From assembly GCA_010093745.1 (NCBI GenBank), contig MU006020.1, positions 59,844 to 79,843 of the forward strand: 20,000 nt of DNA. The letters run 5' to 3'. The notes beneath the pieces are model-generated. The model saw only the letters and a program-made list of their open reading frames with translations. It made no database searches and had not been told where the DNA came from. The stretch comes from Piedraia hortae CBS 480.64 (lineage: Eukaryota). Positions within the stretch are counted from its first letter, which is position 1. Each line of letters opens with the position of its first letter. Both the position numbers and the translations under genes were made by a program. This document shows positions 1 through 20,000 of the stretch, piece by piece.

Positions 1-129
1 TGTCGTCTGACCGGGGGACCAGTTGTAGAGCCAAGACACCTTAGACCCATCGCAGCAGAACAGCTTTACTGGATCTGTATTCTCTTTGGGCCATGCTAGA
101 CCGCGCTTAGTCGATCCACAGGGCGCCAT
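1..129 (-). CDS. 5' part of a glycoside hydrolase family 128 (Asl1-like / Glyco_hydro_cc) beta-1,3-glucanase; truncated by the window edge
   Basis: Manual translation from the ATG at 129 (- strand) gives MAPCGSTKRGLAWPKENTDPVKLFCCDGSKVSWLYNWSPGQTT. KRGLAW and SKVSWLYNWS are the N-terminal signature motifs of fungal GH128. No signal peptide is seen. Confidence 0.85.
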   Translation of the reverse strand, partial: MAPCGSTKRGLAWPKENTDPVKLFCCDGSKVSWLYNWSPGQTT

Positions 130-1128
130 GATGGATCAATCTCGCCATCTATACTTTTATCCTTCAAGGAAGACGATTGCAAAACATAATCCTAATCCTA
201 ACCCTATTGTGGCTGCCATCTTGCCGCCAGACGCACGGCGATGCTGATTGCACGAGACGTTGTGAAGATCGACGCCAGGATGGCGTATGTCAGGTGAGAG
301 AGGATTTCTACATCTGAAACGGGAAAATAAGATCGTATCATGGCGGGGCCCCCTTTGTCTTTGCAAGCTGTCAAAAGTGTAGCCGGCCGGCAGAACAGGG
401 AGCATTGCTGCCCGTTCCCGGTCGGTGACGTGCATGTACACTGCCGGTTTCGTGTCTATCCGAATGCCGCTCGGAGAACGTCGTTTTGAGATGACAGCAG
501 ATGTACTGTAGATTTCGGCCATTGTGCAAGAACTACAGAGTAGAGGGAGAGAGCCTTTGAATTCCCAAGACTGGGAGACGAAAGAATGTACGTTACTGGG
601 CCCATAGGTAAAGTGTCATGAGGCCAATTTGGTAACGTGTGCTCTGAGATGAGCACTTTATAAAAGAAACATATCCGCCGTGGCTTGATTACACCCGACG
701 AAAGCGCCGGTGATTACTTCGTTTCTCCTAGCAAGCGGATGGCATGGCTCTGGGTGCACACAGTGTCTACTTTTCCGGGTACAGTAAGTATCTAATTGGC
801 GCTGGGAGTCGTTCATCTAGACGTGAAGAATGTTGTGCTACACTTCACACGAGACTGCAATGAGGACAGCCCATTAGGAGCGCGCCGTGGCGTCCCACCT
901 GTTCGCGAGTTCAAGAGGCTGACGAGCCGGTAGCCTGGGCCCTTCTAATGGCAAAGCCGCCGGACGGGGGCTGATTGCACGATGACCAACCAACAAAGAC
1001 CGGAACGGTCTCAGGCTCTGACATGCGGGTCACAGCTGCGGCACGCAAGACCCTGCGCGGCTATTGACGTTTGGAAGATTCCTTTTATCTTTATCATTTC
1101 GTGTCTGTTCCACTCAGTCTCTTCCTAC

Positions 1129-1971
1129 ATGTTTCTGCCCTTGGAAAGCCCAGTGAGCCCCCAGGCCGAGTTGCTGAACGCGCTGGGAGTGTGAGTCGAT
1201 CAATTGGCCTGTAATCAAATCTGACTGGACAGACTGTTGGTCAATGGAAAGTTCTCAGACCTACGGCTCGTCTGCAACAGTCGGCAGTGGGCAGTACATA
1301 GGGCATTGCTGTGTTCAAGAAGCAGCTTCTTCGATGCCGCCTGCAGCCATGCGTTTCGTGAAGCCAGGGACCTTGTCGTTGACCTAAGCGACGACGATGA
1401 GGAGGCCGTGGAGCAGATGATTTGCTACTTTTACCGTCTCGACTACGATATTCAAGAGCAGACTCCAACCGTCGAGCTAAGACATCGTTCTCGCCGGCCA
1501 AAGAAGGTTGACTTTAGCCAAATTCGAGACCCTCTGCTCGAAATGGCTGGCCTCTCTCCACCGAGCAGTCCTTGCTGTTCGCCCAGACAAGACACTCCTC
1601 CACCTCAGAGTACCATTATGGAGACGGACAACAGGCCTCCCAAGCTGCTCCTGCATGTGCGTGTGTACGCGCTAGCCGAAAAGTACGACATTCCTGGACT
1701 CAAAGAGCTGGCGCGGTCCAAGTTTGAAATATCGCTTGCCTGTCACTACGACTCGCCCGAGGTGCCTGAAGCGATAGAGGAAGTTTACTGTTCCACGATC
1801 GACTCGGACCGTGGGCTTCGAGATGTCATCGTGCAGCTGTTTATGCAGCATCCATTACTCGCCACAACGCCAGCCGTCCGGGCGCTGCTTGACGACATGT
1901 CACCCTTTATGGATGATATCAGGCAGCACTTTGGGTGCAGTCCTGCAGCGATACCAGTGCACAGCATCTGA
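1129..1971 (+). CDS. BTB/POZ domain protein; exons 1129-1190 and 1233-1971
   Basis: BTB motifs FSDLRLVC..WAVHRALLCSRSSFFDAAC..FREA..VDLSDDD..MICYFYRLDY, plus the fungal C-terminal motif LHVRVYALAEKYDIPGLKELARSKF. Intron 1191-1232 (GTGAGT..CTGAC..CAG, 42 nt) joins the ATG-1129 exon in frame. Confidence 0.92.
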
Positions 1972-2363
1972 TGTGATACGAGCACCACATATGCCCCATG
2001 TTCCTTCCGGTCGCACGACAGCCGGGTACCCCCGGTCTTCCCCAGACTTGATCCCAGAAATGGATTCAAGATGGATCCCAGTAAAGGCCTGCTGCCGGAA
2101 ATACATTAGGAGAGAAACTCTCCGGAGATTTGGCAAGAAACACGGCAATTTAATTTCTAAATACGGACAAAGAGGGCCGCAAGATGGCCTACATCCTCCT
2201 TTTCCCCTGTCCTCTCCTTTTCTCCTACGCACACTCGTTTGCTCACCACAGTCGTTCGTTTGGTTCATAATTATCCATAACTCTACTGCTTTATTATTCT
2301 GGTCCAGCCTCAGCAACTCAGCAACAGCAAAAACCGCAATCTTTTTAATCTGCTCCAGCAACA

Positions 2364-3368
2364 ATGTATACACACGCCACTGCCTTGCTCTCGCTGATCA
2401 GTGTCGCCGCCGCCGCCATTGATGGGCTCACCGCGCCGCAGAAAGTCAAAGCCGACGATGACTTCCAAATCACGTTCAAAGATGCCGACGATGTCAACTA
2501 CCGTGTCTTCCTCGGCGCCGCACTCGCCGGAGCCAACGGCCCAACCTGTAAGTCCATCCCATCCCACCCAAAGGGACCCTACCAACGCCTCCCCCCAGGT
2601 TTCCTCAAAAACAGCACGAAACTCTCCAGCCCCATGACCCTCAAGATCCCCAAGACCGTCGGTCCCTCAGCGGACTACTACTCGATCGCGGTCCAAGACA
2701 TCAGCAAAGACAACAACCCGGTGACCTTCTCCAACAAATTCCACTTGGACGGCGCGGACGGGAACTACACCGATTACGAGAACAAACTTGGCGGGGCCAT
2801 GTTCTGGGATCCCAACACCCTCCCCTGCGACAGCTACGACTGCGCTCGTAAATGTGCAATGGACAACTACCCGCAAGACTTGAACGACAAATCCGCCCAA
2901 GGCAAAATGGATGCCTGCATCCTCAAATGTCCTGGCGTCTCCATGTCCGACGAAGTCACCAACAGCCAAAACGGCACGGACTCATCCGACGCAGTCGTGA
3001 CCATCACCTCCGGAGTCGTCATGACCGCCATCGAAACGACAGCCACCACAGGCGGCAGCACAATCACCGAAGCCGTCCTAGGAAGCAACACCCTCGTCCT
3101 CGGAGGTCCCGCAGCTACAATCTCCGGGGAAGCAGTCTCCCTCGCCTCCGGCGGCGTTGTCGTTGGAAAAGAAACAGCTGCTTTCTCCGGCGCGACGGAA
3201 TCCGGTGCGGCTGCTACTTCGGGAGGAAGCGATGGTAGTGCGAAGGAGTCGGGTGCTGCGGCCCCCTCCCAGTCGGGTAAGGGGGATAAGAAGAGTGATG
3301 CGTCGAAGGTTGTAATTGCCGGGGGGATCTCTCTGGCCGCATTCGTGGGAGCGTTGATCGTGGTTTAA
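2364..3368 (+). CDS. Secreted Ser/Thr/Gly-rich, probably GPI-anchored cell-wall protein; probable intron 2548-2598
   Basis: N-terminal signal peptide (MYTHATALLSLISVAAAA), beta-rich N-domain ending FSNKFHLDGADG, Cys-rich segment (PCDSYDCARKC..CILKC), S/T/G/A-rich stalk and hydrophobic C-terminus (VVIAGGISLAAFVGALIVV). A GTAAGT..CAG 51-nt in-frame intron gives GPTCFLKNST after splicing. Confidence 0.85.
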   Translation: MYTHATALLSLISVAAAAIDGLTAPQKVKADDDFQITFKDADDVNYRVFLGAALAGANGPTCKSIPSHPKGPYQRLPPGFLKNSTKLSSPMTLKIPKTVGPSADYYSIAVQDISKDNNPVTFSNKFHLDGADGNYTDYENKLGGAMFWDPNTLPCDSYDCARKCAMDNYPQDLNDKSAQGKMDACILKCPGVSMSDEVTNSQNGTDSSDAVVTITSGVVMTAIETTATTGGSTITEAVLGSNTLVLGGPAATISGEAVSLASGGVVVGKETAAFSGATESGAAATSGGSDGSAKESGAAAPSQSGKGDKKSDASKVVIAGGISLAAFVGALIVV

Positions 3369-3681
3369 AGGGGAATCAGACTCTTGCATGGCATGGCTGT
3401 GGTGTTTTTTTTGTGGTTTCTTTTTCCGTTTGTGTAATACCCTTTTTTTTTTCTAAAGATGCGGCTTATATGAGATATTGTTTGTTTTGTCTAAGCGTCT
3501 CGAGGGTTGTTGTGTTCGTGGTCGTTGCGACTGATGGCAAGTCGAGGTGGTTGACTGGCCGTAGCATTCCTTTGTAGATGTAGTAACGGACTCAAAGGCA
3601 AGCTGAGGTTGTTGAACACTGTCGCGATATCCCTTCCATAGCCAGTGGTCACGCTCACCGAGAGGTGGACAGGATGATCCT

Positions 3682-3715
3682 CGTCACCAACTGCGTCACC
3701 AACTGCATCACAACT
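3682..3715. repeat. Short tandem repeat (CGTCACCAACTG)x2 plus a degenerate third copy
   Basis: Exact 12-mers at 3682-3693 and 3694-3705, followed by CATCACAACT. Confidence 0.8.
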
Positions 3716-3760
3716 CATGCACTTTATATAATAAGTTACAACAGTCCATTAATATAGAAA

Positions 3761-3850
3761 GGACCCTTGGCGCAGTGGTAGCGTATCTGATTCCAGTTAT
3801 CTGAAATTGGGATATCCAGAGGGTCGGGCGTTCAAGTCGCCCAGGGTTCA
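3761..3850 (+). tRNA. tRNA-Trp(CCA) with an ~18-nt intron (~3797-3814)
   Basis: Acceptor stem GGACCCT/AGGGTTC+A, D arm GCGC-AGTGGTA-GCGT, anticodon CCA at 3793-3795, intron after position 37 containing TGGGAT (can pair with the anticodon loop), T arm GGGCG-TTCAAGT-CGCCC. Mature length is 72 nt. Confidence 0.93.
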
Positions 3851-3853
3851 CGA

Positions 3854-3862
3854 TTTTTTTTC
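3854..3862 (+). terminator. RNA polymerase III terminator (oligo-T) of the tRNA gene
   Basis: Run of 9 T starting 4 nt after the tRNA discriminator base. Confidence 0.85.
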
Positions 3863-3879
3863 TCTCCTGCCTCATTGCA

Positions 3880-5540
3880 GGAGAAGAGTGGGAATTGATG
3901 GGTTTGCTACGGGTTACATTGATGTCAAACTGCTGCAATAAGGACGAAGTTACGGGACAATGTGTAACGGGAACATCCCTCACGCTGTCAATCTCGAAAC
4001 TGCCCATGATTCGCAGCCCTGGATGCTTCATACGATTCCCAACGAGAGTGACTTTCAGTGACTGCTTCCATGGATAGCTTTTTCAAAGAAAAGCACGGAA
4101 TTGGTACAAAGGATCAAATACCAAGTACTGAGTTGAGCATCCACAGCGTGATTCGATCAGCTTTGTTGAGATACTCTCCAAGCTGGACCAGGGAGCACGC
4201 AATGGAGGGCCCTGACTCGCTCACCTCATCCGGGGCAGGCTTCCTGGCAATCCTAATTTCCTCGCGGACAGCCACCTGGCATTGTCTTTGGATCGTGGAG
4301 AGTGCCCTTCTATCACCGCCTGTGCCGTTGGGATTATTTCTTCCACCTCGTATCGTTTTCGCCTGGGTTAACCGCTCTGAATGGTCGTTTGACTGGGAGG
4401 GCTCGGGAAACAAACGCATGGCCACGGTATCAATGAGGGCGCATAGATCGTCCTCAAAATCGAGTGGCTTGTCTTTAAACTTTCATGTGCCCTCATCGTG
4501 CTTGTAGAGTTCCTCCATCACCTCCACGGGCGCCCATTGGGCTTTTTGCCCCAGCCCTAGTTGCTGTTCAACTTCACCCAGATGGTGTAGTTTGACTTCA
4601 GGATATTGAACTTGTTCTTCATTTGTCTCCCTGGTGCGCAGCGTCTGCTGCTGGCTCGGGGCAACAGACTGAACCTTTTCGAAACATTGCAATAGATTTC
4701 CATCTTGAATCCGCTTTGGGAGGCCTTGCCTTTCCTTCTGGCCCCAAGGAAGAGGCTCGTGTGCGCTAGCATGGTTGCTTGTCACCTTCGTTGACATCAG
4801 AATCGCCAGTGACGAATATTTCGCCTGGTTGCTGCGAGGATTGGACATGCCCGAAGACCGATGAGAGAGATGTCTAGTTTGCTAGCTGTGGGTAGGACAT
4901 CTTCAATCGTCTCGTTGGGCTGTAACAACAGCGTCTTCTCCTGCGGACGCATAGCAGCTATGCTATGCTATGCCAATGATGGCAGAGAGACAGGGGGTGT
5001 ACGACTCGGGGCTGACAAAGCCATTGCCTTCCTGGTTGATGCCGGGAACGGCGGCAAATGCGACGAGGGCATATTCATGGAGGTTGTTTTGAAGGACGTG
5101 GTCCAGGACCGCCGCGCAAAAGTCCAGGCAGCCGTCACCCAGCTCCCTTTCGAGCTCCTCGTGGGCTGTGCTTCACTGATGTTCTCAAGCTCGCCATGTT
5201 TTTGGTGGAAGATGATACCGAGCACGGGAGCAGAAGGTGCCTCGTACACGTTCCGTTTTCTGGGCCAGTAATTGCATCCCCAACCGCGGGAAGCTTCTAG
5301 ACCAGATAAAGGTGGCTGGTCCGACTCCGGGAGCTTGATTCCCTCGTTGTTGGGAATTCACAAAGGTCGATCAAGGTAACGAGGTTGATTCACGAAAGTC
5401 ACGAGTGCTCTGCGAGGCTCCCAGTGCTCAGGGTGTTTCTTGAAGCATTGCTTGATCAATTACTTTGGGAAGACGCCCGTGCGGTAAGTGATGCACACAA
5501 GTACCTACTGTTCCTGTAGATGGATAAACGACTTAGTCTT
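3880..5540 (-). pseudogene. Degenerate DUF3505/OrsD-like gene (N-terminal part of a telomere-linked-helicase-type gene)
   Basis: The - strand frame from ~5530 reads FIHLQEQ*VLVCITYRTGVFPK*LIKQCFKKHPEH..IKLPESDQPPLSGLEASRGWGCNYW..IIFHQKHG..SWVTAAWTFARR. This matches the remembered DUF3505 pattern (vliC..C..av.p..i..Hl...H / lP....Pi.gL...g..C / H...Hg). It has in-frame TAG/TAA/TGA stops and fragmented downstream frames. Confidence 0.55.
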
Positions 5541-6388
5541 TCTATATACTGAGGACTGGACGAATGTCACAGTAGCTCTCGCAGCAAGCATCCGTGCAGC
5601 GATATCGTTGTTGTCGTGAGAAAGAGCATCTAGCTCCAGGATGGAGTGGAAGCTAAAAGCCTCTATTGCCCTCGCTAAGAACCAACTTCGGGGGCTCTGG
5701 AGATGAGAGCCTCAGATGAGGATTCAAAAACCCTCCATTTGACGAGCTCTTGATGACTTGAATGTCGTCTCAACATTGCCCGAGCCTTCCAGCCCGTTCC
5801 GTATAGATCCATGATCCACCCATTCTTGTTGTATGTTGGTGATAAACGCGCTCTGGGGGGTGGCTCGCTTAAGTTTTGAGTTCCTCTCAAGAGCTTCCTG
5901 ATATCGAAATCTCAAAGGGGACACATCACAATGTACCATGTCAAGGCAAAATTTGGACATAGTCTTGGCCTTCGGAGTATAGTAGTTTCCGGGCTTTGAA
6001 CAGCCTGGCACCCGATGAATGCTCGTGTTGGATGCAACGATTAGACAACGACCAGAATCGAATACCCTCCAATCCCTCAAACCTCGCTTACTTTACTCCC
6101 GGAAATCGGTCCAGGTGCGTCTTCAGTTTCAAGAGATTGGCGCATCTCAACTGAGTACCGTAGATAAAGGCAGATCAGGAGTAAGACCACCAATTACAGC
6201 CTCTTTTTCTTCTCGATGCACAATCAGTCTACCAAGTTGCCTAGCTTGTAATATGCACCTCACGATCGACATACATCTTGCGCCCGACAGAATTGGTTGT
6301 GGGCTGATATGTATGGGACGGAAATATTTCCGCTTCCCCCCTAACGCAGCCCAATCTCACTTCTTACCCAACTCGCGCACTCGCGACA

Positions 6389-7294
6389 ATGACGCCCCTA
6401 AAGCGCAAAGGCTCGCCAATTGACGAGGAAGAACAATCCGCGAAACGCCGCTTCGCCGAAAGCGAAAGCATCCAGGAAGAAAACGTACCTCTCCTATCAG
6501 CAACAACGCCCAACGAGAGCGCAACACCCTCTACAACCACAACAGCACCAGCCCAAGACCCGCGAGCAGCGCGCTTCGCAGCCCTTAAATCGCGAATCCA
6601 AGCCTCTCGCGAAGCAAACCTCCACGCCTCCCAAACCGAAGCCCAGCGACAGAAAATCGACATCTCCCAGCTGCCCGCCCTTAACCGCAAACGCGACATT
6701 GCGGCCCACAACCTCCTCAAAGCAGAAGTTGAAGCGCGTGGGGAGGATTTCGAGCGGAAGCGCGCTTGGGACTGGACGATTGAAGAGTCTGAACGGTGGG
6801 ATAAACGTCTCGCGAAGAAGGCAAAGAACAGAGAGAACAACCTCGCGTTTCGCGACTATGCTGATGAGGCGAATAAGATCTACAAGAGGCAGGTTGGACA
6901 GATGACGCGAGATAAGACTGCGCTGCAGGAGAGAAAGGAGCAATATAAACGGGATAAACAGGAGGAAATTGATCGGGCGGTTGCATCTGGTGGGTTGGAA
7001 CTTGTTGAAACGCTTGAGGGGGAGGTCATTGCTGTTGATAAATATGGGGGTGGGTTTGTGGAGGATTCATTTAAGCATAGTCAACCTTCCAAAGAGGCGG
7101 TGGATAGGCTTGTTAAGGATCTGGAACAGGCGGAAGAGGTGCGGCTGAGGAAGAGGAGGGAGAGAAATAGGGATGAAAAGGATGTTACGTACATCAATGA
7201 GAAGAACAAGCAGTTTAATCTCAAGCTGCGGAGGTTCTATGATAAGTATACGACGGATATAAGGGAGTCGTTTGAACGAGGGACTGCGTTGTAG
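6389..7294 (+). CDS. SYF2: Pre-mRNA splicing factor SYF2 (NTC/Prp19 complex)
   Basis: Intact 301-aa ORF with SYF2 motifs RAARFAALK, GEDFERKRAWDWTIEESERWDKRL, PSKEAVDRLVKDL and DVTYINEKNKQFNLKLRRFYDKYTTDIRESFERGT. Confidence 0.97.
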   Translation: MTPLKRKGSPIDEEEQSAKRRFAESESIQEENVPLLSATTPNESATPSTTTTAPAQDPRAARFAALKSRIQASREANLHASQTEAQRQKIDISQLPALNRKRDIAAHNLLKAEVEARGEDFERKRAWDWTIEESERWDKRLAKKAKNRENNLAFRDYADEANKIYKRQVGQMTRDKTALQERKEQYKRDKQEEIDRAVASGGLELVETLEGEVIAVDKYGGGFVEDSFKHSQPSKEAVDRLVKDLEQAEEVRLRKRRERNRDEKDVTYINEKNKQFNLKLRRFYDKYTTDIRESFERGTAL

Positions 7295-8596
7295 GTGTCG
7301 AGGGCGGATACTAATTAGTCGTTGAGGCATACAGGAGGGTTTTCTTGCGAAGCAAATGCAATCATTAGAAACTGTCTCATGGTGTCACTCACGCCATTCG
7401 ATTACAGATCCTCCGTGGTATCTATCCAAAAGCTCCCCCATTCTAGCGTTTGACGATCGTAACAGATATCTTAACGTCTTGAAAGAACCATAAATTGTTG
7501 CCGAAAACACGCTTTCACCTCGAGCCTCTGAATGCAAGCACCATAAGCTCAACCAACCTGCACCTTGTCAAAAGCAGAGAAGCGGTATCAAACCAGCCAC
7601 GAGCCTGCAGACTCACCTATTGGCCCATGATCTGTCACTGAAATTCCGAGATACGAAGTGAGTTCTCGGGGCATAACATGGGCCTTGCTTCTTTTCCTGT
7701 GGACCCCTCGAAGGTTGATCAAATCTCCTCGTTCGAGTTGTTCGAACACTGCAAAAAGAGGGCGAGACCTTCTTTAATGTATCTCCCAGTTTCAAAAGCG
7801 ACGAAAGCAGACAAAGACGATATGGGTTAAGAAACAATGGAAGATATTGTGCAGGTCGCCACGGAGCGATTCGCTAGTTATGACCCACACTCCTGACCAG
7901 GCTTCGAGCACTTAAGAATTTTCTCTTGTAGCTCTAGATACGCGTGTATACGGACTCACCTGCGGGGTGCCGCTGCTTATTAGAACAGAATAGGTATTTG
8001 CAAGTATATCGTTTTCTGTGTGGCTACAGAGGTCTTTATTCCCCAACCTCCTAGAAATATGTACGATAATAATCCCCTTTCCAAAGCCGGAAACCTTGAC
8101 CTTATGTAAAGAGCATTTTGCCGCTGTTTGGTCTGCGGTCGAATTATCTGAAGCCCATCCTTACCTTGCGGACGACGATAATAATTGCCACCTCAAAACT
8201 TGCGGGATTGCGTTGTGGTGGGCAGTCACCATGTTAGGCGCACGCCGCACCAGCCTTGACACTGCCAAGGAAATAAGCGGGCTGGCTATTCGATCAGGTA
8301 GAGTACTTTGCGTAGGAAATTTGAACATGGGACCCGTTGTGCCAGAGTGTGGTACTTTTCACTAAGCAAGTAACCACATCCATTTCCCCGGCGGGAAAAT
8401 TGATTAATACTGTGGATAGCTGTTCTCATCCACCCTTGCCCCCTGGTGTGTAATTTTTGGCGTTGTATGGCCTCAAACGCAGCTTCAGGCGACCATTCCC
8501 GCTCCTTGTAACTCCCTTCCGAGGAAGACTCCGCCACTCCAAACTTGCGGGGAAAATTCGGGCAGTTTGGAGAAAAAAGCTGAGGGGGTTCCGAGG

Positions 8597-8636
8597 CCTA
8601 ATACCCTTATAACCTAAACACCCTTATAACCTAGGG
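8597..8636. repeat. 16-17 bp tandem repeat (CCTAAACACCCTTATAA)x~2.3, telomere-like strand asymmetry
   Basis: CCTAATACCCTTATAA-CCTAAACACCCTTATAA-CCTAGGG; ACCCTTATAACCTA occurs twice exactly. Confidence 0.8.
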
Positions 8637-8699
8637 TATGTAGCATTGTAGTTCTGCCTATATGCAGACAGGCAGCTGATGCTACAGCTGCTACAGCGG

Positions 8700-10700
8700 A
8701 GGCATGCTGACAGCCTTGTCCACGAACTTCGACATGCCGGAGATCAGTTGCTTGTCGCGCTTGTTCCATTTCTCCAGCCGCTGCGTCTGCATTTTTACAC
8801 TGCGGGAAAAAGGCGGCCGACGCCGCCATCGGCTTGGTAGCATGCGGCACAGAAACTGGGAGATAATAATTGGAAGTTGCATTGAGGGACCGAGAATTAG
8901 CGAGCGCACCGCGTCATGGCTTCGTTGCGGCTGAAGAACAATCCCTTGTCATATCGAGCCACAGAAGGAGGCACATCGGCAGGTTCCTACTTTCGTGACT
9001 TTGTCTAATGCAATGATCTGCCGCACAGCCTGCGCCATCTCGTAATGACTTCGGGACATCGTTGCTGGTGCACTTATTCTCATAAACCGTGGCGATGTAC
9101 AGAAAAAGGCTTGGCCGTCATGCAGTCAAACGAGATGAGGGCGAAGAGCTCCTCGTCGACTGGTAGATGGTGTCTCGGGCTGTACCCGTCGCAGATTCCG
9201 ATATGCGATCAGGCAGGTAGCTCAAGTCGATGCTCCTTTCCAGGTCCTATGAGCATCTCTCCATCAGATTGGCGGCCCCCAACTGCGCTTGGTATCCGAT
9301 TTTACCATATTCGGTTATCGACATTCGGCCTGCTTCTCACATCAGTTCACCATCCCGCAGCTCGACCCGGTTTGATTGTGCGAACACCCCGTCATCTCTC
9401 AGCACGAGAGTTTGGAGTGCCCCATCCCTGCCGGAAAGAACAAGATTCAAAGCCATTACCAATGCCAACCCTATTGACAATTTTGTTAGGATCAGACTCA
9501 GTTCCGATGGTTACAAGTAGCCCGCCGACAGCTTATTTCGATGTCTCTCCTAGAAACTTCCGATGGGATCTCGAAGTAACGTCCACTGTGCATACGTTCC
9601 GCCAGCCGATTCTTTCATGCGGCCCATCATTGCAGCACAGCTGGATTAAGTGAACTGTGCCCGCGTGGTGGGCTTTGTCTAGGTCGCTGTAGTGAAATGG
9701 GCCAGAGGGACTGGATCGAGCAGTGCTGCGTCGGCTAGCCGGAATTATGTCCGTGGCTGAACATCCCATTGCTGCGGAGCAGTCACCCGAGTCTACCACT
9801 ACGATGATCGATCTCAAAGTTATCCGCACGTTCAATCCAACCAATGGCATGTCGCCATCGTTATGGCCTGTACTGCTGGGAAAACCGATGTATGGTTTCG
9901 GGTCGGAGTTTTTGGCGTACCAGTAGCCACAGTGTGCCGATCTGGATGGGGAATTGACGTGGCAGGTGTCTTGGATTGCCGGTGTACAGATAGCCACCGA
10001 TCCTGTCCAGCACAACAACAAATTCTGAACTCCACAAGTCAAGCCTGTGCCTGCCACCGGTCACGATGCGTTTTGCAGCCAGTACAGAGTTGCCCATTGC
10101 TGTATTTGTTTCCATTCATGGGCAACAGCATCGACAGCAACTCCCTCGTTTTTTGTTGACATCAGGGGAAGAAGAGCAAACGACTATGTCCTGATCTGGG
10201 TCGCTCTGCATTTCTTCTTCTGCTCATCCATGAGCTTGAAACAACGTTGCCGAAGGCTGGCAAGCCAGCAACCTAATACTACTTCCAGATCTTTGTTCAG
10301 AAACCTTTGCACAAAGGCCTTCCAGCTACTCTGCACCTTCTTGTCCCAATGTTGGACCATCAAGTCGATGGCCAGAAGCCCGTGGTCGTACTCGTTCCTC
10401 TTCGAGGGCTCATTGATTTTAAGCATCCACCACTGACACAGGCAGCGCAACTATAGGCTGAGTATTGAGGTCCAATGACTTGACTTCATGGAACACTTCA
10501 ACCATCCGACGCGTGGCCGCCTTGGAATAGTACATAGCCTGCAATCCGTGGGCTGCATAAACATCTTTTCGCCTTTTCTCATCTTTTCCACTCTATCCCC
10601 CTTCCACACACAACGCGACTACCATGTCCTTGAAAATTTGAGTCTCTAAGTGACTCGAGATTGTCGCATCGAAGTGGACAAGGAACTTGCCTCTGCTGTC
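8700..10700 (-). pseudogene. Heavily degenerate second remnant resembling the central region of DUF3505/telomere-linked-helicase-type genes
   Basis: Frame-shifted - strand fragments: ..WWMLKINEP..VQHWDKKVQSSWKAFVQRFL, CSAAMGCSA, HRKFLGETSK*AVGGLL, VELRDGELM*EAGRMSITEY..DLERSIDLSYLPDRISES / GYSP. Their order resembles the remembered Y...Wkrfl, avlGi, h..fl...s..p.g.ll and idl..l.D...GySF blocks. The match is weak and by eye only. Confidence 0.35.
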
Positions 10701-11172
10701 GACGCATGTGTAACTTAAGACCCTACGGAAGGGCTAAACAAAGTGTAGCCCTTTCGTGGCGCGTAGTACGCGGATTTCATTTCCCGCAGAGGCCGCGGTG
10801 ACATCTACGGCCACACGCCGGAAGAAGAATCCATAGGCGCGTTTAATGCGCCCATGGTTGCTCCCACGTCGGGAGCGACATGTTGGTTGGTAATATCATG
10901 TTGGGTAAAGTTTGGAAATTGCAAAATCGGAAGTGCGGTTACGGACCCACTCTCAAGACCCTAAAACTGTCAAAGTGGGACCGAAAATGGAACCAAGACC
11001 GAAATGGAAATTCGCTCCATCCCCCAGAATTCAAGCTGGAAGCGCTTACCAAATATGGAAGTGCGGAATTTTCGCCATAGTTCAGAGTGTTGCATCTGTG
11101 CACCGTCGAGGCTATGCAGATTGCGATGCTTCCTCTTTCGGCAATACTGCGTTACTCATCTCTTTTAGTCCT

Positions 11173-11256
11173 GGCTGGATGGAACAACGCAATACTCAGA
11201 TCGGCTGCATGGAACAGCACAATACTACGTTCGAGTGGATGGAACAATATGGTACC
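11173..11256. repeat. 30-bp tandem repeat, ~2.8 degenerate copies
   Basis: GGCTGGATGGAACAACGCAATACTCAGATC (11173-11202), GGCTGCATGGAACAGCACAATACTACGTTC (11203-11232), GAGTGGATGGAACAATATGGTACC. Confidence 0.85.
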
Positions 11257-11511
11257 AAGAACTGACCGTTTAGTAACAACAATGCACTATATTGTGTTGT
11301 TATTACCACACGCTCAGATTTCGATTCAAAGATGTGGTTGAGCCGTGACTCCCATACGAGAAACGTCAACTCCCGCGGCGAACTTCCGCACGCCAAGACA
11401 ATCTGTCATTCCGATCGCAAATATTCATCTGCCGAATATCCCTCACGCAACCGCCCACTTCCAGCATTACAACATCTCACATTGATTGCAATATCGATAG
11501 CCCCAACCAAC

Positions 11512-12579
11512 ATGGACCAGAAAGCTTCTTCCACGGTCTCTCTCGTTGAAAAAAAGCCTGCAGGCTTACAGAATGCTTTATCGGTTGTAATCAATGCCGT
11601 AGAAGACAAAATCAACAGGATAGCCATCCAGACCATGCCTAAAACCCCGCCAAATGAGTCTCGAGTTCGTGTGGGTCAAGTCGCAGAAGAAACCCCATTG
11701 CTGGGAATAACTAGCCCCCATACTTCACGTTTTAAGCCGGGGCAAGAGGTGGAAGAATTATTCCATGACACCGATGTCGTTACGGACTACCCAACCATTG
11801 ACTACAGGCTATCCGAATATGAAGAAAGTCACCTCGCACTCCTACGGCATCAAGAAGCGAACTTGCCGGAGATTGAAAAATACACAGACATCTACCCAAA
11901 GTCGGGTGCTACTCGCGGAATGATCGCAACCTTGATGATATGCATCATTGACCAAGTCCGACTTCCCAAGGAGATTCTTCTCCATGGCATCTATATCGTG
12001 GATCGACTACTGTCATGTCACCCTTCCATCAACAACGACAGAATGGAGCTCATGGGCCTCACAGCGCTCTGGCTCGCGGTCAAATTTGAATATCGAAACG
12101 CCCCGTCAGCCGAAAGCATGGTCTCTGTTCTCCACAGCGGCTACTCTGCAACCGAGCTTATCGAAAGCGAGCGATTCGCTTGCAACGCTCTCGAATATCG
12201 CCTTGTTTACCCCAGCCCAGCATCGTTTCTCAGGGAATATCTGATCGCGACGTGCTGGGGTGATGACATCCATACGCTGGCTTGGTGTTTGATTCATGTT
12301 TCATGCTTTGAGAATGGTTTTGTGGGTGCCAAACCTTCGCTTGTTGCAGCTGCTGCTTTGATGTTCACCAGACAGGTGTTTCTGCTTGATGAATGGACGA
12401 GCAAACACTCAGAGGTTACTGGCTATACAGCCGAGGAGTTGAGGTCTTTAGTTGGGCTTTACAAAGCCGTCATTGCTTCGTCGAATGGGCATAGGCCCTT
12501 TGAGGAGCCCTTCGGTTCGCCGAAATACGAGTATCTTTTGGACGCTGCGCGCGTAATGGCCTGGGATGAAGGGCACTGA
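11512..12579 (+). CDS. Divergent, intronless B-type (Clb3-like) cyclin, 355 aa from ATG 11512
   Basis: Cyclin box ..LPKEILLHGIYIVDRLLS..MELMGLTALWLAVKFEYRNAPS..GYSATELIESERFACNALEYRLVYPSPASFLR and Cyclin_C region TLAWCLIHVSCFENGFVGAKPSLVAAAA..WTSKHSEVTGYT. No stops or frameshifts. Confidence 0.88.
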   Translation: MDQKASSTVSLVEKKPAGLQNALSVVINAVEDKINRIAIQTMPKTPPNESRVRVGQVAEETPLLGITSPHTSRFKPGQEVEELFHDTDVVTDYPTIDYRLSEYEESHLALLRHQEANLPEIEKYTDIYPKSGATRGMIATLMICIIDQVRLPKEILLHGIYIVDRLLSCHPSINNDRMELMGLTALWLAVKFEYRNAPSAESMVSVLHSGYSATELIESERFACNALEYRLVYPSPASFLREYLIATCWGDDIHTLAWCLIHVSCFENGFVGAKPSLVAAAALMFTRQVFLLDEWTSKHSEVTGYTAEELRSLVGLYKAVIASSNGHRPFEEPFGSPKYEYLLDAARVMAWDEGH

Positions 12580-12699
12580 TACATGATGCTAAGTGCTGTG
12601 CATCTGAGAGAGGTTTATTGTAGATTCATAGACCGTATGTAGGATATTAAATGTGCTGAATAGATCTTTGAGCCATATTTTACCCCCATTCACTTTGGT

Positions 12700-13600
12700 C
12701 AGAAACTCTACGTAAGACGTATGCTATTACTACAATGATCATGATTGCAGGCTTCAGGGTTGCCAGAGTCAGCGGTGTGAGTACCCTCAAAAAAGAAAAT
12801 GATTGCACTATCGCACCGTTCTCAGCAATCTTGCTTACTGTTCGCTTAAAATGGACCTCGCGGCATCGATAAAATTGCCTGAAGTTGAAATTCATGTCCG
12901 GAGGAAGGTCGCATTGCCTGCGTAAGCTTACAGCCAAGGATCCCATGCGTTCCCCGGAAAGTGTTAAACGCCATCAAGCTAGTTTGAGATGGAGGACAGT
13001 AGCAAGAAGAGGGACAGTTCTGTCCAGTATCAAGCTATGGCCAGATGTGAAAGCAATATTGTCATTTGTGGAGTCTCTATCGTAGATGAACCTCCTCTCG
13101 GTGAAATCAGTTTCGTTATCTTGGAGTCCAAGCCATACTTACTTCGGCGACGAGTCTTTCCTCGAACTTGGCAATGTCCCCAATGGATTTGTGCTGGGCA
13201 ACGACTCTATGCTTATGGTGCCTACCTCCCAGAGTTCTGCCACAGTTCAAATCAGTGAGCGACTTGCGAGCTCTTTTGCCCACGACCAGGTTATGGGGCG
13301 TTGACTCCGGACTCTCGAGGATCATTTCCGTAAAGTTCGCCTGGCTCCTAAAATCTAGCGGGATTTGTGATGGCCTCCGATGCGCAAGATGCCCTTTAAG
13401 GATGAATCTGTCCTTATGCGTGACGGTCTTGAGCATATCTGCACACGCCTTGTGCTCCATCTGCTCGTCATGGTACACACATCTTATCTGTGTTGGCGCT
13501 GGAGCCACGACCCAGCGCTTTCCGAGGACAAGAGTTCTTGGACGTTTTGCAATCTTTCAGTCTCAGATTGCCGAGTCGCCACTTGAGTTATATATGAGTA
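12700..13600 (-). pseudogene. Possible MULE/Mutator-like transposase remnant
   Basis: APAPTQIRCVYHDEQMEHKAC resembles the MULE fP....lC.wH...n motif. HNLVVGKRARKSLTDLNCGRTLGGRHH..KSIGDIAKFEERL resembles the fv.aw....hfG..tt.r.E..H..lK...s.gdl segment. Very decayed; boundaries are approximate. Confidence 0.3.
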
Positions 13601-13866
13601 CTGCGATTGTTGCCTCCATACACGACTATTGAGCACGCGCTACACTACCCAATACCCCCCGCGTCTTGTCACGTCTCGCAACCCACCTCGCGAGTCGTCA
13701 CGATTTGTGGACTCTAGGTTTATACCTGAATTGCCTCGTCCCAGATAATTCGATTACTTATTAACAGCCTCACAAACTACGCAATCCTACAATAAACTGA
13801 GAATATGGTATAATTTGAGGAAAGATCATGACATTCTACTTCCATTAATTAAGGTTAGCTTGATAA

Positions 13867-13891
13867 ATACGCAGTCAATCCTGCATCAGAC
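13867..13891 (+). repeat. Left terminal inverted repeat
   Basis: ATACGCAGTCAATCCTGCATCAGAC versus the reverse complement of 19367-19391, ATACGCAGGCAATCCCGCATCAGGC (3 mismatches). Confidence 0.9.
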
Positions 13892-14195
13892 AAAATCAGC
13901 CTGAAATCGGTCTGAAACCGACTGAAAATCTATCTGAGATCTGGCTGGTTTCAGCCCTGTGATCGGTTGGAATCTGCGGAATATGTGTCTGATTTCAGGT
14001 GAGATTTAGCCTGACTTCGGGCCTGTTCCTATCTGATATCAAGTTTGTTTCTATGTGATATCGTATCTGTGGCAGTCTGACTCTAGCTGGTTTCCGCCTG
14101 ATATCGTGCTTGTAGCTCTCTGATTGAAGGCACTCCGTTAGATTGATACCAGGCTTGAATGAGCTGGAATCAGGTGTGCTATTTTCAGAAATCAT
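13892..14195. repeat. Left subterminal array of degenerate ~11-bp units (AAATCAGCCTG / CTGAWWTCAG-like)
   Basis: AAATCAGCCTG AAATCGGTCTG AAACCGACTGA AAATCTATCTG AGATCTGGCTG GTTTCAGCCCT.. GTCTGATTTCAGGTGAGATTTAGCCTGACTTCGGGCCTG.. Confidence 0.75.
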
Positions 14196-14281
14196 GTTGA
14201 CGACTTTTGGCCTATCTAACAAACATTACACTGTGCCGAAGTCCTCTTGCGATCTACTTCCCGGAGGTCCAGGAATAACTG

Positions 14282-16033
14282 ATCAGGCGGATTGCCCGGC
14301 TAGGACCTTGCCGTCCTTGGAGACCCCGCCCACCGTTTCCCTTCTTCTCCCATCCATGGCATTGGAGGTCTCGCTCGAAAATGAGCCCCTAGTGATAATG
14401 CCAGGGACTGCAGTTCATATGCGAAGAACTCACCTGTCGTCTGCGGAAAGAAGGCGATAATTTAGGTCCCATTGCTCCAAAAAGTCGGCTCGGCTGGCAG
14501 AGCATTGCGACACCTTCCACTACTGCAACGTAGAAGTCAGGATGATTAGCATTGGACTGGAACATGTATAAGTTATCCTATCCAAAGCGAAGCAGCCTTT
14601 GCCTGCTCCTCGGAGACGCTGAAGGCGAGGGGGAGGGGCTGAAGACGGAGTGCGGTAAACACGCTGTAAAGCAGTGTCTCCTCGTGGGCGTCTCTTAACC
14701 GCTTTCGCAAGTCTTGGCGCAGATCAGACTTGATCTGCGAGATCTCGGAGAGGACGGACTGTGTGGGGGCCTTTGCCATAACACCCCGGGAGCGCAACTC
14801 GGCCTAGAAATTCCATTAGAGCGACCCTGGATGCTAGAAAGAAGGTCGTGCTGAAGCTCTTACCGCGATGGCGGAATTGTCGCCCCATAACGCGCCCCCA
14901 GCGTGCTCCCAGAATAGCAGCTGCCGCATTGCAGCGCGGATTCCCTAAGGTAGAATTAGTCTTGTCCCCAATCGCATTGAAAATGTAGGTCTTGACTCAC
15001 TCCCTTGGCCGCTTTCGTTTCGTGCATTTCGTTTACCCGCGCTTCAAGGGCCTGGAGGCGGGTGTGCATGTCTTTATTCATCGTGACGAGCTTGCCGATG
15101 TATTTAATCGCAACCCCTAGGGCCACGTTGGGCGGCGCCTGGAGAGATCTTACACTGACTTGGTCGCTCAAGCCCGGAATTGCAAATGTACCTCAACCAC
15201 ATCCACCAAGAGAAAGGGACTGCTAATATCAGCTGCCCTGACTCTGCTTCCTGCATCTATAGTGGTCATAGTTGGCCACGAAGGGCGCACACGGGCCGTC
15301 TGCGACAAACTGCCGGCGATGCCGAGTGGATCGTCACTCATTGAGGGCACCGGGGTATCGGCGGGAGACGCGCGAGGCGATGACAAGCTTAGGGAAGCCG
15401 TAACCCGACGCTGATGTTGTGCACGCAAGATGCTGGGTCCACCGCTCCAGCCCGCCCTGTGGGGACAATGGAAACGGATTTTGGTAGGGGAGTCAGGTGG
15501 GTAACCGAGGGAGCGATGTTGGCTCTCATCTCGGTGAGGCTGTCGCCATCCTCGACATCCTCAACGAAATTCATATAATTGGCATTGCCTATGTGGCCGA
15601 GGTCGTCGCGTATCTCGTCATCAACAAGGTCCTCATCAAAAGAGTGTTTCCTGTCCTCGTAATCATTGTCAGCCTCACCATCAACATAACCAAATTCTCC
15701 AAAGGAGTCGTGAGTATCGGCAGTTGGCCTAATTAGATGCGGTATCAAATTATAGGCGTACATAGCTCTCGATAAATGCTTGATCATACCTTTCGGCTGT
15801 GATGCGTGCGCGCTTGAGGTTTGGCATAGATTGGGCTTCTTCGACCAATGTTCTCTTGCCTCCGCGACCGCCTCTGGCACCGCCTCTGGCACCGCCCCTT
15901 CCGCGACCTTTTCCCTCGGTCTTTTGCATCGCGACGATCTCCGGGTCGCGCGTTGGATCTTGTGTTGGGAATCTTGTGACAGTGTTGATGTGTTATTGTG
16001 AGGGAGCAAAGAAACCAGCGATGCATGCCCCAA
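14282..16033 (-). pseudogene. Transposon accessory gene (unknown function) with up to four introns; disrupted
   Basis: - strand introns 15000-14945 (GTGAGT..ACTAAT..TAG) and 14863-14804 (GTAAGA..CTAAT..TAG) splice in frame: ..RLQALEARVNEMHETKAAKG|GIRAAMRQLLFWEHAGGALWGDNSAIA|AELRSRG..EISQIKSDLRQDLRKRL..KAASLW. A third intron has branch GCTAAT and an acceptor at ~14520-14523 but no intact donor. A fourth is 14433-14389 (GTGAGT..TAG). The acidic/Ser-Pro-rich N-terminal part is split over three frames. Ends are approximate. Confidence 0.7.
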
Positions 16034-16603
16034 AAGCGTTTAGCTTAGAACGCCTTGTTTGCTTGTCTTTATTCCCTCGCTTTAGCTAATCAAACAGAGA
16101 CTGCCCTCAGACCCTAAGCAAGTTCAGGTATAGTGCAGTAAAAGCAGAGGATGGCAGCTCTATCTGATCGGCTGAAGCAGAGAATTAGGCTGCCCTTCAT
16201 CTTGTTGAATATTGTTGAATGACGTCCCAAGCGGATCGGGCCGGTACAGGCCGGGAGGTGATCACACCTTCTCAATCTTGTTGACAATATACTTTGAGAT
16301 AGTCACAACTTTACTACCATAACTCCCATCTCGTAAGTTGTTACCTCTCTATGAGAACGAGAATTGGATACGATACCTCACCTTGGTAGCCACCTAACGA
16401 TAGTGAAACAACAGCCTTCATTCCATTCAGTAATAGCTATACGTTTTACCTAAACTTAGGGAAAGGTCTATAGTATAATTTGAGGATTGCACGCCGCATT
16501 GACCTTCCTTGCTTAACGCCACAAAACTAGTTCAAAAGCTTTTCGATATCCAAACGACCGGACTGGCATATCACCGCATATAAACCAGTTCAGATTTCTC
16601 GAG

Positions 16604-19129
16604 ATGCCTGCTACGCGGTGCCACATCTGTCATAGAATTGGGACGGGCAAGTCAACCATGAAAACGCCGTACAGTAAAGACGTTCACTTTTTGACGGCAA
16701 TCCATCAAAGGAACAAGAACAACTTGAGACACGACCCGGAAGAGTACCAAGCGGCCTTGGATTTCGACGGATCCGAGGATGCCGATGCTTGCATGAGACC
16801 GGTCCTGGAATCGCGAGCGCAGGACCCCAAAATCCTAGCTCGACAGACCACAACTCAAGCTGCAAGCACTGTGAATCCGGCGCCTTCCTGGAATATGAAC
16901 GCCCAAGCATTATACAATGATTTGTTCGAGTTTTGCATGGATATGGACAACCAAGTTGACGGGCGAGATGAAGACCAAGAGGCGGAAGACGAAGTCAATT
17001 GCAGTTACGATGAGAGTGACTGGGATTGTAAAGATGACGACACTACCATCAGCGATGCCAGCAATATTAGCGAGTCAACTCACGAGGACGAAGATGTCGA
17101 GTTTTCGACAGGTAACGAGAAATTAGACATCGAAACTTCAGTACCGATCGACCAAGATATGCCATATTCTTCTTGTTTTATTCCGCCAGAAAACATCGAC
17201 ATGAGACTGCCTCACAATCCATGGAACCCGTTTGCTTGCAAACAAGATGCCCTTTTGTTTGCAATATATTATTCTCATCGTCATCCTATCAGTGATACTC
17301 TGGTGAAAACCTTTTTGAAACTGATGAAGGAGCTTGCAAAGATCCCAACCAGACTCAAAGTACCCTCATTGGGAAGACTGAAGAACTGTCGTAAAATCAT
17401 TCCCAAACCTCAGGTTATTCGTCGCGAGACCAAAGATGGGGCATAATTTTATCAGGTTAGTGTGCTTGACATTGCACGCATGCAAACCTGTAGGAGCAAT
17501 ACAGAAGTCGTCCACTACCCCGATGTGGTAGAGCAAGTGGCGACCTCGCCCGATGGGCTTGCTTCGAAAAGTTGTTCCGAGATGTGGCTCGGCACCAAGT
17601 GGCGTTGGGAGCTACGTAAACAACGACCCACGACGATTAACTGGATCTAAGGGAGGCCAGTCAGTTTTTGGCTTGGAGACGTTCTGCGGATGAGTCCATC
17701 CAGCTCGACCAGATACGCCTTGTGTTATGACCTGAAGATCCACTCTAGCCTGCAGACATAGGAAAACAAGACATAATTTATTCGAGGGATTCCGCTGGTT
17801 TGTTAGAGCTGGTGAACGGGTGCACCCAAGGAAGACGAAGTTCTCTATTCCTACCAAGGACGGTATGTTAGGGGTGAGCGAGACGACCGTGGTTATCCTC
17901 GAAGAGACCCAAGTTATGGATACCCGGGCCAAGGAAGATGTTGAGTTTGTTCCGCAAGATGGCACGCCGCTCCATGAAGACTTTGGTCCATTCCTGCGGA
18001 CCCCACATCCGGCAAAGAAGTTCTACACGAAGCATGACGCCCATGTTGTGCAGCTCAGTGTCAACTTTTGGCAGGACGGGGTAAGTGCGGCGCGAGGAAA
18101 ACGGTGGAATCCCCTGGAAGTGTGGACTATAAATTTGGCTGGCTTTTCACGCAGGGTGAGTCTTGGCTGTCAATGCAAACAAATCGTTGTGAGAACTGGA
18201 CCTAATGTGTGATTTGGTCTAGCACAATTTTCACGTCTCTGCCAACTACTATGTTGCGGTTGGTGCCAAGATGAAGGTCACCAGTATGCGCGGTGAGCTG
18301 ATGCCGGATCTGGTTCGGCCCCAGCGCGGCGTGCGGGCCTTCAACTCGCGCAGTGGCCGCCATGTGCTCATCTCTAGACGCGCCTGTCGGTTCATGGCCG
18401 ATAATCCTGCCGCGGCGGCGCTTTGCTCGATCCGTTGGCATGATTTTTACTGGCGCTGGGCAGTATTCAATCAATGGAAGGACCTTACCGATGTTCCCAG
18501 CCTGGGGTTGCTACGACATACCAAGGGATGAACTTCTCAACCTTTGCCAAGGAAAATGGAAGAGGTCCATGATTGGCCTGCCAAATTCTTAGATTTCCGG
18601 CCCTAAGATCAAACGTCTGCGCACTCAGCTTCCTGCAACGACCTAGGCCGCGCACAACAGGCTGGTCAGCACGTATGGCCTGAGATGAAGCCGGAGGGAA
18701 TGCCGTCAATTCTCTAGATGTCTCGGATCTACATCATGTGGAGTAGGCTCTTTCGTGCAATGCTGGGAAAGCAGCACGATATTCCGCGTCAACGCGATCC
18801 TACGACAGGTTAAGACACCACAGACGGCGATTGCCCTAGTTGAGGAGTTCCGGACTGTGGCTCCCCAGAACAACAACGAAGGCCTTTGTGCGTCGGTCAA
18901 AGTTACCTTGCTCGCCTCGACACGAGGTTACAGAATCGTCCCGAGAGGAGATCTGGCCCGCGTTCTCAATGTCATGCATTTGTGTGGCTAGTGGCTTGGC
19001 GTAAAGCAGGATCTCATCGCTTATCGAACGGAAAGGCAGATGGCCCCTGGTGATGTATGGCCGCACGAGGTAGAGAGCGCGTCTAGCCGCTGGATGGCCA
19101 ATATCCATATGCTTAATCTGCATAGCTGA
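16604..19129 (+). pseudogene. CACTA-related (CMC-type) fungal DDE transposase pseudogene with N-terminal Zn finger; intron 18156-18222
   Basis: Ordered motifs: CHIC..HFLTAIH Zn finger, acidic linker, PWNPF, KVPSL, GA*FYQ, HYPD..SEMWLGTKWRWEL, HPAKK..QLSVNFWQDGVSAARGKRWNPLEVWTINLAGFSRR|HNFH.., GVRAFNS..FMADNPA, then C-terminal GSFV..DLARVLNVMHLC..RTERQ..WMANIHMLN. In-frame stops at 17444, 17648 and 18989; frameshift at ~17750. The GTGAGT..CTAAT..TAG intron splices in frame. Confidence 0.8.
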
Positions 19130-19231
19130 TTGGGAGGCCAAGCATGACAGGGTTTCTCCACCATCGCGTGGCTTTTATCAATTTTAATTCATTCTGCACA
19201 TGTTAATGAAACGTGCCTTATTATGTAGTTT

Positions 19232-19366
19232 CGGAATCAGGTAGTTGTCGTGACAGCCTGAAAACCAACGCCATGTGGAATCCTGATCTCAGGTCTCCTG
19301 AAATTCTGACTGTGACAGCCTGAAAACATGATCCTGTGATATCCTAATTTCAACTTTCAGGTGGTA
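19232..19366. repeat. Right subterminal repeat region
   Basis: Exact 16-mer GTGACAGCCTGAAAAC at 19250-19265 and 19312-19327; near-palindrome CCTGATCTCAGG at 19282-19293; several CCTGA/TCAGG motifs as at the left end. Confidence 0.8.
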
Positions 19367-19391
19367 GCCTGATGCGGGATTGCCTGCGTAT
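19367..19391 (-). repeat. Right terminal inverted repeat
   Basis: GCCTGATGCGGGATTGCCTGCGTAT; its reverse complement matches 13867-13891 at 22/25. Confidence 0.9.
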
Positions 19392-20000
19392 GTCCGTCCA
19401 GACGCACTCTGCATGTTATCTATTGCTTTGTCCGGGTCTCCCACCCTCAGCGGTGTTTTGTAGTCCACAAGAGCATTTTTGCACTCCTGGTTCCACCAAG
19501 GCGTACCTCGCCTCGCCCGTCGGTTACTCTACGGTATGGACGCTTCCATGGTGCTTTTGATGTTGTTTATGAGAGCGGTGGCCAGCTCGTCGATGGAACC
19601 AGGTTCGGGTGTCACCTCGGGTAGCGAGCGGATGGGATACGCTTCCCTGAGAGCCTCTTCGTCGCCGTCACTGTAGACGTATCTAGATCGTTCTCGCCTC
19701 CGCAAGGGACCCTGGGTGGGGTGTCACTTCGGTTCTAGTCCCTGGGACATTCGAAAACACCAGATCTATCGTGTGGCCTCTGTTGTGAGTAGATATTCCA
19801 TGTGTTGCACACAGCGAGGTGGTTATGGGCATAGTCGGGGTGGGTTTTGGAGAGAAATGCCTGGCTGGATCTGTCGAACACAGTCCATGGCTCCTGCACC
19901 ATTAGTATGGCGGCGCCGATCGATGCGCCATGGGAGAGTATGAGGTCATTATTAGGACTGTCGTTTTGCACGTTCGCTAGCAGCAGGAAGATCCTTCGAT
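19392..20000 (-). mobile_element. Non-LTR retrotransposon (LINE, Tad1-like) remnant: internally deleted APE endonuclease and linker
   Basis: - strand fragments FLLLANVQND..ILMVQEPW..KTHPDY (APE N-terminus), THNRGHTIDLVFSNVP (APE C-terminus) and IDELATALINNIKSTMEASIP*..GTPWWNQECKNAL (EN-RT linker). They are in the right order, with frameshifts and missing segments. Confidence 0.85.

Follow-up and report, generated by a model that had tools for sequence, protein, structure and literature searches.

The window analysed here, a 20,000-nucleotide stretch of the Piedraia hortae genome, is the final 20 kb of contig C64, and it hosts a real, intact B-type cyclin gene (Table 1). The first-pass annotation, made from the sequence letters, reported an uninterrupted and intronless ORF at this place, and the gene is indeed one stop-free frame; an in-frame ATG upstream, at 11332, would lengthen the protein by 60 amino acids. 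Both cyclin domains score well above the Pfam cut-off, and alignments of the protein to cyclins A2 and B1 have E-values of ~1e-14. Within its own genome it matches the NimE-like and Clb3-like cyclins and a divergent copy on contig C32 at E<=0.001, while the Cln-like cyclin is not matched. The top-ranking Atlas clusters are cyclin B/B3 (0.97). An AF2 model (pLDDT 78.9, from a 100-sequence alignment) has cyclin B1 as its top fold match (7nj0_C; E 6e-11; TM(target) 0.85). A double cyclin-box fold together with Cyclin_N and Cyclin_C places the protein among the group I B-type cyclins, and it retains further B-type features, namely the EY..E..Y N-terminal helix, FLR, W295 and GYT. DNA depth is flat at 13 over 1-13699, which makes contamination or misassembly unlikely, though the reads are possibly the assembly's own source.

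Table 1. Features of the window that are discussed in the text, in window coordinates.
Feature	Position	Strand	Remarks
Short interspersed repeat, ~140 bp	7847..7990		82-87% identical to at least 30 other places, after scoring of 40 out of 125 candidates
Single-copy polyadenylated transcript, divergent from the cyclin	7995..11048	-	RNA contigs
Divergent B-type cyclin ORF	11512..12579	+	Intact, intronless, 355 aa
D-box-like QNALSVVIN (aa 20-28)	11569..11595	+	Gln at P1; Leu at P4 and Asn at P9 kept
T45-P-P-N-E, candidate Cdc4-type phosphodegron or CDK site	11644..11658	+	S/T-P site
Cyclin_N	11836..12204	+	aa 109-231; Pfam 61.7 bits
Altered hydrophobic-patch helix TRGMIATL (aa 134-141)	11911..11934	+	Replaces MRxxLxDW
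E179 replacing the patch Gln	12046..12048	+	Gln in 95% of 133 B-type cyclins
K191 and E193 of AVKFE	12082..12090	+	Conserved
E220 of ESERF	12169..12171	+	Invariant
Cyclin_C	12211..12531	+	aa 234-340; Pfam 61.6 bits
Degenerate multi-copy transposon-like element, ~5.5 kb	13868..19390		~1.3 kb downstream of the cyclin

The gene sits in a single-copy block (7990-13656). It had been described as stranded among transposon debris, with decayed coding remnants on both sides. On the right this description holds, as the degenerate element lies there. On the left it does not: the stretch 7990-11500 is single-copy and transcribed, no remnant of a decayed coding sequence was recognised there, none of the 34 flanking frames reaches the Pfam cut-off, and the ~140-bp repeat is the one repeat on that side. 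A tblastx comparison of both flanks with the other loci examined returned self matches alone. The transcript on the left is ~2.8 kb or more long, and one of its contigs skips 10960-11048 (CT..AC). Its minus strand holds no ATG-started ORF of more than 105 amino acids and no Pfam match, and it is possibly a lncRNA that shares the cyclin's promoter region. The transcript runs away from the cyclin and ends beside the 140-bp repeat.

The element on the right is 88-91% identical to five other places across more than 1.4 kb. As a lead only, it may be Plavaka/CACTA-like: Plavaka is named in 15% of the members of its Atlas cluster (score 0.92), and the Pfam Plavaka model has no match anywhere in the genome. 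RNA contigs over 14192-15200 on the minus strand, within the element, show introns at 14803-14862 and 14944-14999 and terminate in poly-A at 14192; mismatches in sequence point to other element copies as the probable source of part of this RNA. Minus-strand fragments at 19290-20000 resemble a LINE endonuclease/RT region in their motifs, and Pfam returned no match to them.

Is the cyclin itself carried by the element? If it were a selfish or transposon-borne gene that the flanking element had spread, much like a viral cyclin, this would account for the nearness of the element (1.3 kb, downstream) and of the short repeat (3.5 kb, upstream), and extra cyclin genes are listed for Fusarium supernumerary chromosomes in the cited part of a preprint (10.1101/721753). 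We consider this highly improbable. The gene and its surrounding block are single-copy, no cyclin match lies near the element's other copies, and the extra cyclins of this genome are 28% alike, hence far older than element copies that are 88-91% identical. The proposal that a transposon duplicated the gene finds no support here: the gene occurs once, lies outside the element and predates the element copies by far.

Pfam searches of the 16.9 Mb genome identified five intact group I cyclins, and the genome also holds three broken remnants. Three of the intact genes are canonical: a NimE-like cyclin on C8, which holds the NimE place (84% to P0017), a Clb3-like cyclin on C6, which is 80% identical to a Baudoinia protein, and a Cln-like cyclin on C5. 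The remaining two are the cyclin of the window and L004 (C32:1101-2753, minus strand), another divergent B-type cyclin, which is intact, lacks introns and is ~550 amino acids long. In L004 the patch reads LRGEAYNW, KYTT replaces KYEE, and the D-box, TAALQDVTN, has no Arg; a word-indexed search found no relatives of it among 1338 candidates. The remnants comprise L009 (C64, near 13.2 kb), which carries a frameshift and stops, L012 (C73, near 31.8 kb), which is 74% identical to L009 in DNA across 117 nt, and L066 (C32, near 43.4 kb), which matches the tail of L004 at 46% and contains a stop.

These counts bear on two of the earlier suggestions. The gene of the window was proposed to be an extra paralogue rather than the sole Clb3 orthologue, and the canonical Clb3 on C6 already fills that place; it was also thought to be part of a lineage-specific expansion, which the five intact genes and three remnants bear out. 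By paralogue count and tree, the ORF falls outside the Clb3 and NimE places, each of which is filled by another gene, and is at most an in-paralogue of NimE. We infer that it is an orphan, fast-evolved extra B-type cyclin of a small birth-and-death expansion. The cited part of a survey of filamentous ascomycetes gives exactly three group I cyclins and no duplications in 32 of 32 species (PMC6078057), with which five intact cyclins and three remnants in a 17-Mb genome stand in contrast. Our search of the literature on the species and cyclins, on Dothideomycete cyclin expansion and on divergent meiotic cyclins returned nothing on this gene, with subscription papers mostly outside its scope. As a side observation, contig C42 (43694-46903) hosts a divergent TFIIB-like gene with a cyclin fold; taken with the extra cyclins, this gene suggests a genome in which fast-evolving copies of core regulators arise repeatedly.

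The origin of the gene can be approached by homology searches and trees. A word-indexed search, covering lengths of 0.55-1.75 times that of the query, returned only a fragment of the protein itself (P0002, aa 135-339) among 2329 candidates, and a full HMMER scan with 4295 matches at E<=0.001 returned the protein itself alone at 1e-30, so neither search found an orthologue. The best non-self match lies at 1e-25, and the 149 non-self matches listed are 24-37% identical. Ten of the more divergent matches were examined, and the seven that are named are chytrid, basidiomycete or amoeba cyclins. Within the genome, the protein is 31% identical to its own NimE over 205 amino acids, 28% to its own Clb3 and 28.5% to L004.

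A quick tree of 61 rows, which took 55 of 133 trimmed matches, joined the ORF and L004 as sisters (SH 96) outside the Clb3 clade, both on long branches. In a tree of 16 rows the same pair branches beside the NimE clade, and an AU test on that tree rejects sisterhood of the ORF with its own Clb3 (p-AU 0.017), while a grouping with NimE is not rejected (0.22). Rare residues are shared by the ORF and L004 at 14 of 120 sites; four further pairs of long branches share them at 15 of 351 (p=0.007, a post hoc comparison). The ORF and L004 also both carry an EVTGY that occurs in none of the 149 matches listed. Diagnostic sites of L004 favour NimE (five NimE and no Clb3 states of 16). On this basis the ORF was probably duplicated from the NimE line, that of the main mitotic cyclin, and L004 is probably its sister. 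There are counter-signs to this parentage: a careful tree of 25 rows leaves the ORF protein unplaced, its own diagnostic sites are uninformative (three NimE and two Clb3 of 15), and the derived residues that it has in common with L004 show no excess over a profile-based null (22 of 120, with 24.8 expected). A Clb3/ClbA orthologue was considered as a separate identity and is rejected by the AU result and by the presence of the canonical gene.

The gene structure adds a little to this history. Homology indicates that the NimE gene of this genome carries GT-AG introns towards its two ends, and the ORF and L004 both read through the position of the 3' intron, in a weak by-eye alignment with four identities in 15 positions. 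This fits retroposition, which the first-pass annotation had offered as one route of duplication, or intron loss, and either is possible; the cyclin box of the genome's own Clb3 is intronless too. No A-run was seen after the stop codon, and a poly-A tract or target-site duplication would not outlast such divergence.

We compared the protein with a reference of 133 B-type cyclins, those of the 149 listed matches that passed a coverage filter. The residues kept are R135, E154, D164, R165, K191, E193, E220, P236, F239, R241, W295 and Y305, so the group I core and CDK-face set (R135, D164, K191, E193 and E220) is complete. Retention of the Lys of AVKFE and the Glu of ESERF had been pointed out from the sequence, and these columns (K191, E193 and E220) are at least 99% conserved among the 133 and also match cyclins A2 and B1. 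By comparison with cyclin A, all three are putative CDK-contact positions.

The reported substitution of TRGMIATL for MRxxLxDW is recovered in the alignment: Met has become Thr, Leu has become Ile and Trp has become Leu, with R135 retained. The patch Trp is present in 98% of the 133 cyclins and a Leu at this position in none of them. Another conserved residue, the Gln that is replaced by E179, is presumably part of the hydrophobic patch as well, so that the canonical cyclin B patch (MRxxLxDW plus Gln) is absent. The phosphate-binding pocket of human cyclin B1 consists of R307, H320 and K324, according to the cited part of PMC11747444. An alignment to 2b9r, with residues placed by counting from HTLAK, equates R241 and H254 with R307 and H320, and puts W258 in place of K324.

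The N-terminus carries a D-box-like 9-mer without its Arg, just where it had been reported. Within the first 95 amino acids, this QNALSVVIN scores best against a profile of the 43 D-boxes that a set of 139 N-termini contains; leaving position 1 out of the score, 5000 shuffles give it p=0.0066. A canonical RxxLxxxxN is absent, the RxxL motifs of the protein all lie within the fold, and there is no KEN. Loss of the Arg is not unique to this protein, since the best D-box matches of the C32 cyclin and of the canonical Clb3 are TAALQDVTN and KKILGDVTN. Nor is Arg universal elsewhere: in the cited part of PMC9713472, the QRVL of Aurora A works as a D-box, less efficiently, with the P4 Leu being critical, and the D-box of cyclin A is of a VxxL type. 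The earlier idea that the cyclin is stable is not supported: the motif is still D-box-like, the genome's own Clb3 has Lys at the same position and a QxxL is functional in Aurora A. As the motif survives in an N-terminal tail that is otherwise unalignable, a weakened degron is favoured over a stable protein. That said, the AF2 model places a helix at aa 17-40 with the motif at its start, so the pattern may be structural, the beginning of an amphipathic helix. The T45-P-P-N-E of the same tail is a candidate phosphodegron or CDK site by its consensus.

Several lines of evidence address how the gene has been maintained. Of the 31 columns with a conservation of 95% or more, 21 are kept, compared with 12 of 76 among those less than 40% conserved; the 10 near-invariant columns that have changed are counted against our best reading. 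When neutral point-mutation drift of the NimE box was simulated, ignoring indels, frames remained stop-free in 616, 201, 15 and 0 of 2000 runs at 90, 80, 60 and 31% identity. Since the positions retained are preferentially the conserved ones, and an open frame does not survive neutral drift to this extent, we conclude from the sequence that the ORF diverged in the past under constraint. An old neutral pseudogene was considered and rejected: there are no stops or frameshifts and no uniform decay, and no simulated frame was intact at 31% identity. However, L009 has the same gradient although it is dead (18 of 28 and 5 of 45), so this gradient records past rather than present selection.

Might the gene then be a duplicate that was useful once, was released from selection recently and now does nothing important, following its three broken relatives? 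We regard this as a serious but rather unlikely reading. The three remnants share its genome, it adjoins a degenerate repeat at a contig end, the RNA contigs over it are all short, and its fourfold-site GC is at background level. The latter is 0.51 in the ORF, 0.48-0.51 in the flanks, 0.60-0.68 in four core genes (p=0.0015) and 0.62 in L004, in a comparison from which the Cln, SMC and WD rows were left out as out of frame; another gene of this contig, of NACHT/WD type, has a similarly low value of 0.47. On the other side of the balance, all 355 codons are intact, and the D-box-like motif persists in its unalignable tail. Any relaxation must be recent, as few simulated boxes stay stop-free after a drift of 10-20% of amino acids.

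The RNA evidence comes from run X2, which we take to be RNA from five spliced joints and two poly-T ends. It covers 0.36 of the sampled words in 11300-12800, a patchy cover by contigs that give neither strand nor level. Among the X2 records listed, one contig spans 11492-11777 and so covers part of the ORF. There is no cover over 12651-13750 and contig depth over the ORF is low, but contig depth cannot rank genes, and neither value is usable as an expression level. The RNA over the ORF could be antisense, with the minus-strand transcript next to it reading into the gene, given that a spliced contig of that strand skips 10960-11048. The 730 bp promoter holds one MSE-like, two HMG-like and no MCB motifs; these counts are without a control and were not used.

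A search of the genome found one Cdk1, along with a PSTAIRE-bearing Pho85-like kinase. An exon of this Cdk1 is 100% identical to a Piedraia hortae record, and the next most similar sequences, from other Dothideomycetes, reach 82-88%. The predicted complex of the cyclin with its own Cdk1 (P0152) has weak support, at a score of 0.57, as opposed to 0.07 for the best control, in a range (<=0.60) where passes are often wrong; of solved pairs 51 of 78 reach the mark, as do 2 of 108 mismatched ones. At least 71% of contacts recur between runs, with a partner pLDDT of at least 76. Solved cyclin-CDK complexes may drive this score, which may thus reflect mere likeness to them.

What would such a cyclin do? 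The closest experimental parallel is the Cdc13 hydrophobic-patch mutant of fission yeast (M235A L239A W242A), which supports S phase but not mitosis, does not reach the spindle pole body and keeps its intrinsic activity; without Rum1, its S phase is the same as that of the wild type (cited part of PMC7063568). The first-pass annotation had suggested that the cyclin of the window may be insensitive to inhibitors, a conjecture on which this Rum1 result bears. We give an even chance to the proposal that the ORF encodes a Cdk1-binding, poorly docking, still degradable cyclin that is used in a special state. It would still bind and activate the genome's single Cdk1, would be unable to dock RxL/LxF-type substrates and would not be targeted to spindle pole bodies. 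Cdk1 activated without docking or targeting would have a low-specificity activity, sufficient for S phase and insufficient for mitotic entry, as with patch-mutant Cdc13. Degradation would probably be slower, through the Gln-type D-box. The special state, which is a guess, might be sexual or ascospore development or slow growth.

A broader version of this proposal is that a small family of B-type cyclins without a patch and with weak degrons has evolved in this species, of which two members are alive and three dead. Through them Cdk1 would be active independently of docking, in a specialised programme that might be ascospore formation or very slow growth. We put this forward tentatively, as somewhat unlikely. 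If true, nature would have produced its own counterpart of the Cdc13 patch mutant, and the rule of three cyclins per filamentous ascomycete would have an exception.

Other functions can be imagined for the same features. The protein might be a decoy, which binds Cdk1 through the kept interface, activates it poorly, titrates the kinase away from NimE and slows the cycle. A retained CDK face with both docking surfaces (patch and phosphate pocket) eroded would suit this, and so would the predicted complex, subject to its possible likeness to solved ones. It is nonetheless improbable in our view: the patch mutation alone leaves the intrinsic CDK activity of Cdc13 undiminished (PMC7063568, in the part cited), we see no sign of lost activation, and a decoy needs abundance where RNA cover is thin. 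Less probable again is a switch of partner, for example to Pho85, the other PSTAIRE kinase, or an action independent of CDKs. The extreme divergence of the protein, at ~30% to all B-type cyclins, and the existence of the Pho85-like kinase speak for a switch. The retained B-type features speak against it, as does a genome with no co-diverged extra Cdk1.

It is useful to set the proposed docking-poor cyclin beside known systems. With NimE of Aspergillus and Cdc13 of S. pombe it shares the two cyclin-box folds, the K/E residues of the CDK face and the position of an N-terminal D-box, and the best tree places it near the NimE clade. It differs from both in lacking the patch with its Gln, in a pocket Lys that has become Trp and in a D-box Arg that has become Gln. 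Compared with NimE, its N-terminus is about half as long, it has no introns, and its branch is ~50 times longer than that of the genome's own NimE. ClbA/Clb3 cyclins (PMC6078057, in the part cited) resemble it in being B-type and, in the genome's own copy, in an intronless box and a best D-box match without Arg; they differ in that a canonical gene exists separately on C6 and that sisterhood is rejected.

The likeness to the Cdc13 patch mutant consists of two positions changed non-conservatively (Met to Thr and Trp to Leu) and a third changed from Leu to Ile (PMC7063568, as cited in part). Unlike that mutant, the ORF is natural and carries many further changes, and the likeness is one of patch sequence. 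The Cyclin_N/Cyclin_C genes on supernumerary chromosomes of Fusarium oxysporum are likewise surplus cyclins in repeat-rich regions of a filamentous ascomycete; they are listed there by domain, and the comparison is one of description (10.1101/721753, in the part cited). In contrast to the Fusarium case, the contig of the window is not an accessory chromosome, as the core gene SYF2 and an SMC-type gene are located on it.

Other systems, too, have divergent cyclins whose timing is specialised or whose regulation is altered, such as Rem1 and Crs1, which are specific to meiosis in S. pombe, and the herpesviral cyclins. Their likeness to the ORF is one of divergence and, possibly, regulation, and the herpesviral cyclins, which we take to be D-type and CDK6-binding, differ from it in that the ORF is B-type.

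If active, the gene is a natural experiment on how far cyclin B depends on its docking patch, its phosphate pocket and the Arg of its D-box. Its importance is tempered by the surplus cyclins already known from Fusarium accessory chromosomes and by the chance that this copy is dying.

Finally, the rest of the window and its contig host some further genes. A secreted Nis1-like protein, below the Pfam cut-off, is found at 2364-3368, with a 51-nt in-frame intron at 2548-2598. A tRNA-Leu(CAG) follows at 3761-3851, and the SYF2 splicing factor lies at 6389-7294. Elsewhere on the contig, an inverted pair of genes, L043 (1296-4528) and L044 (4878-8131), are 66% identical to each other and, by their motifs, NACHT/WD40-like.
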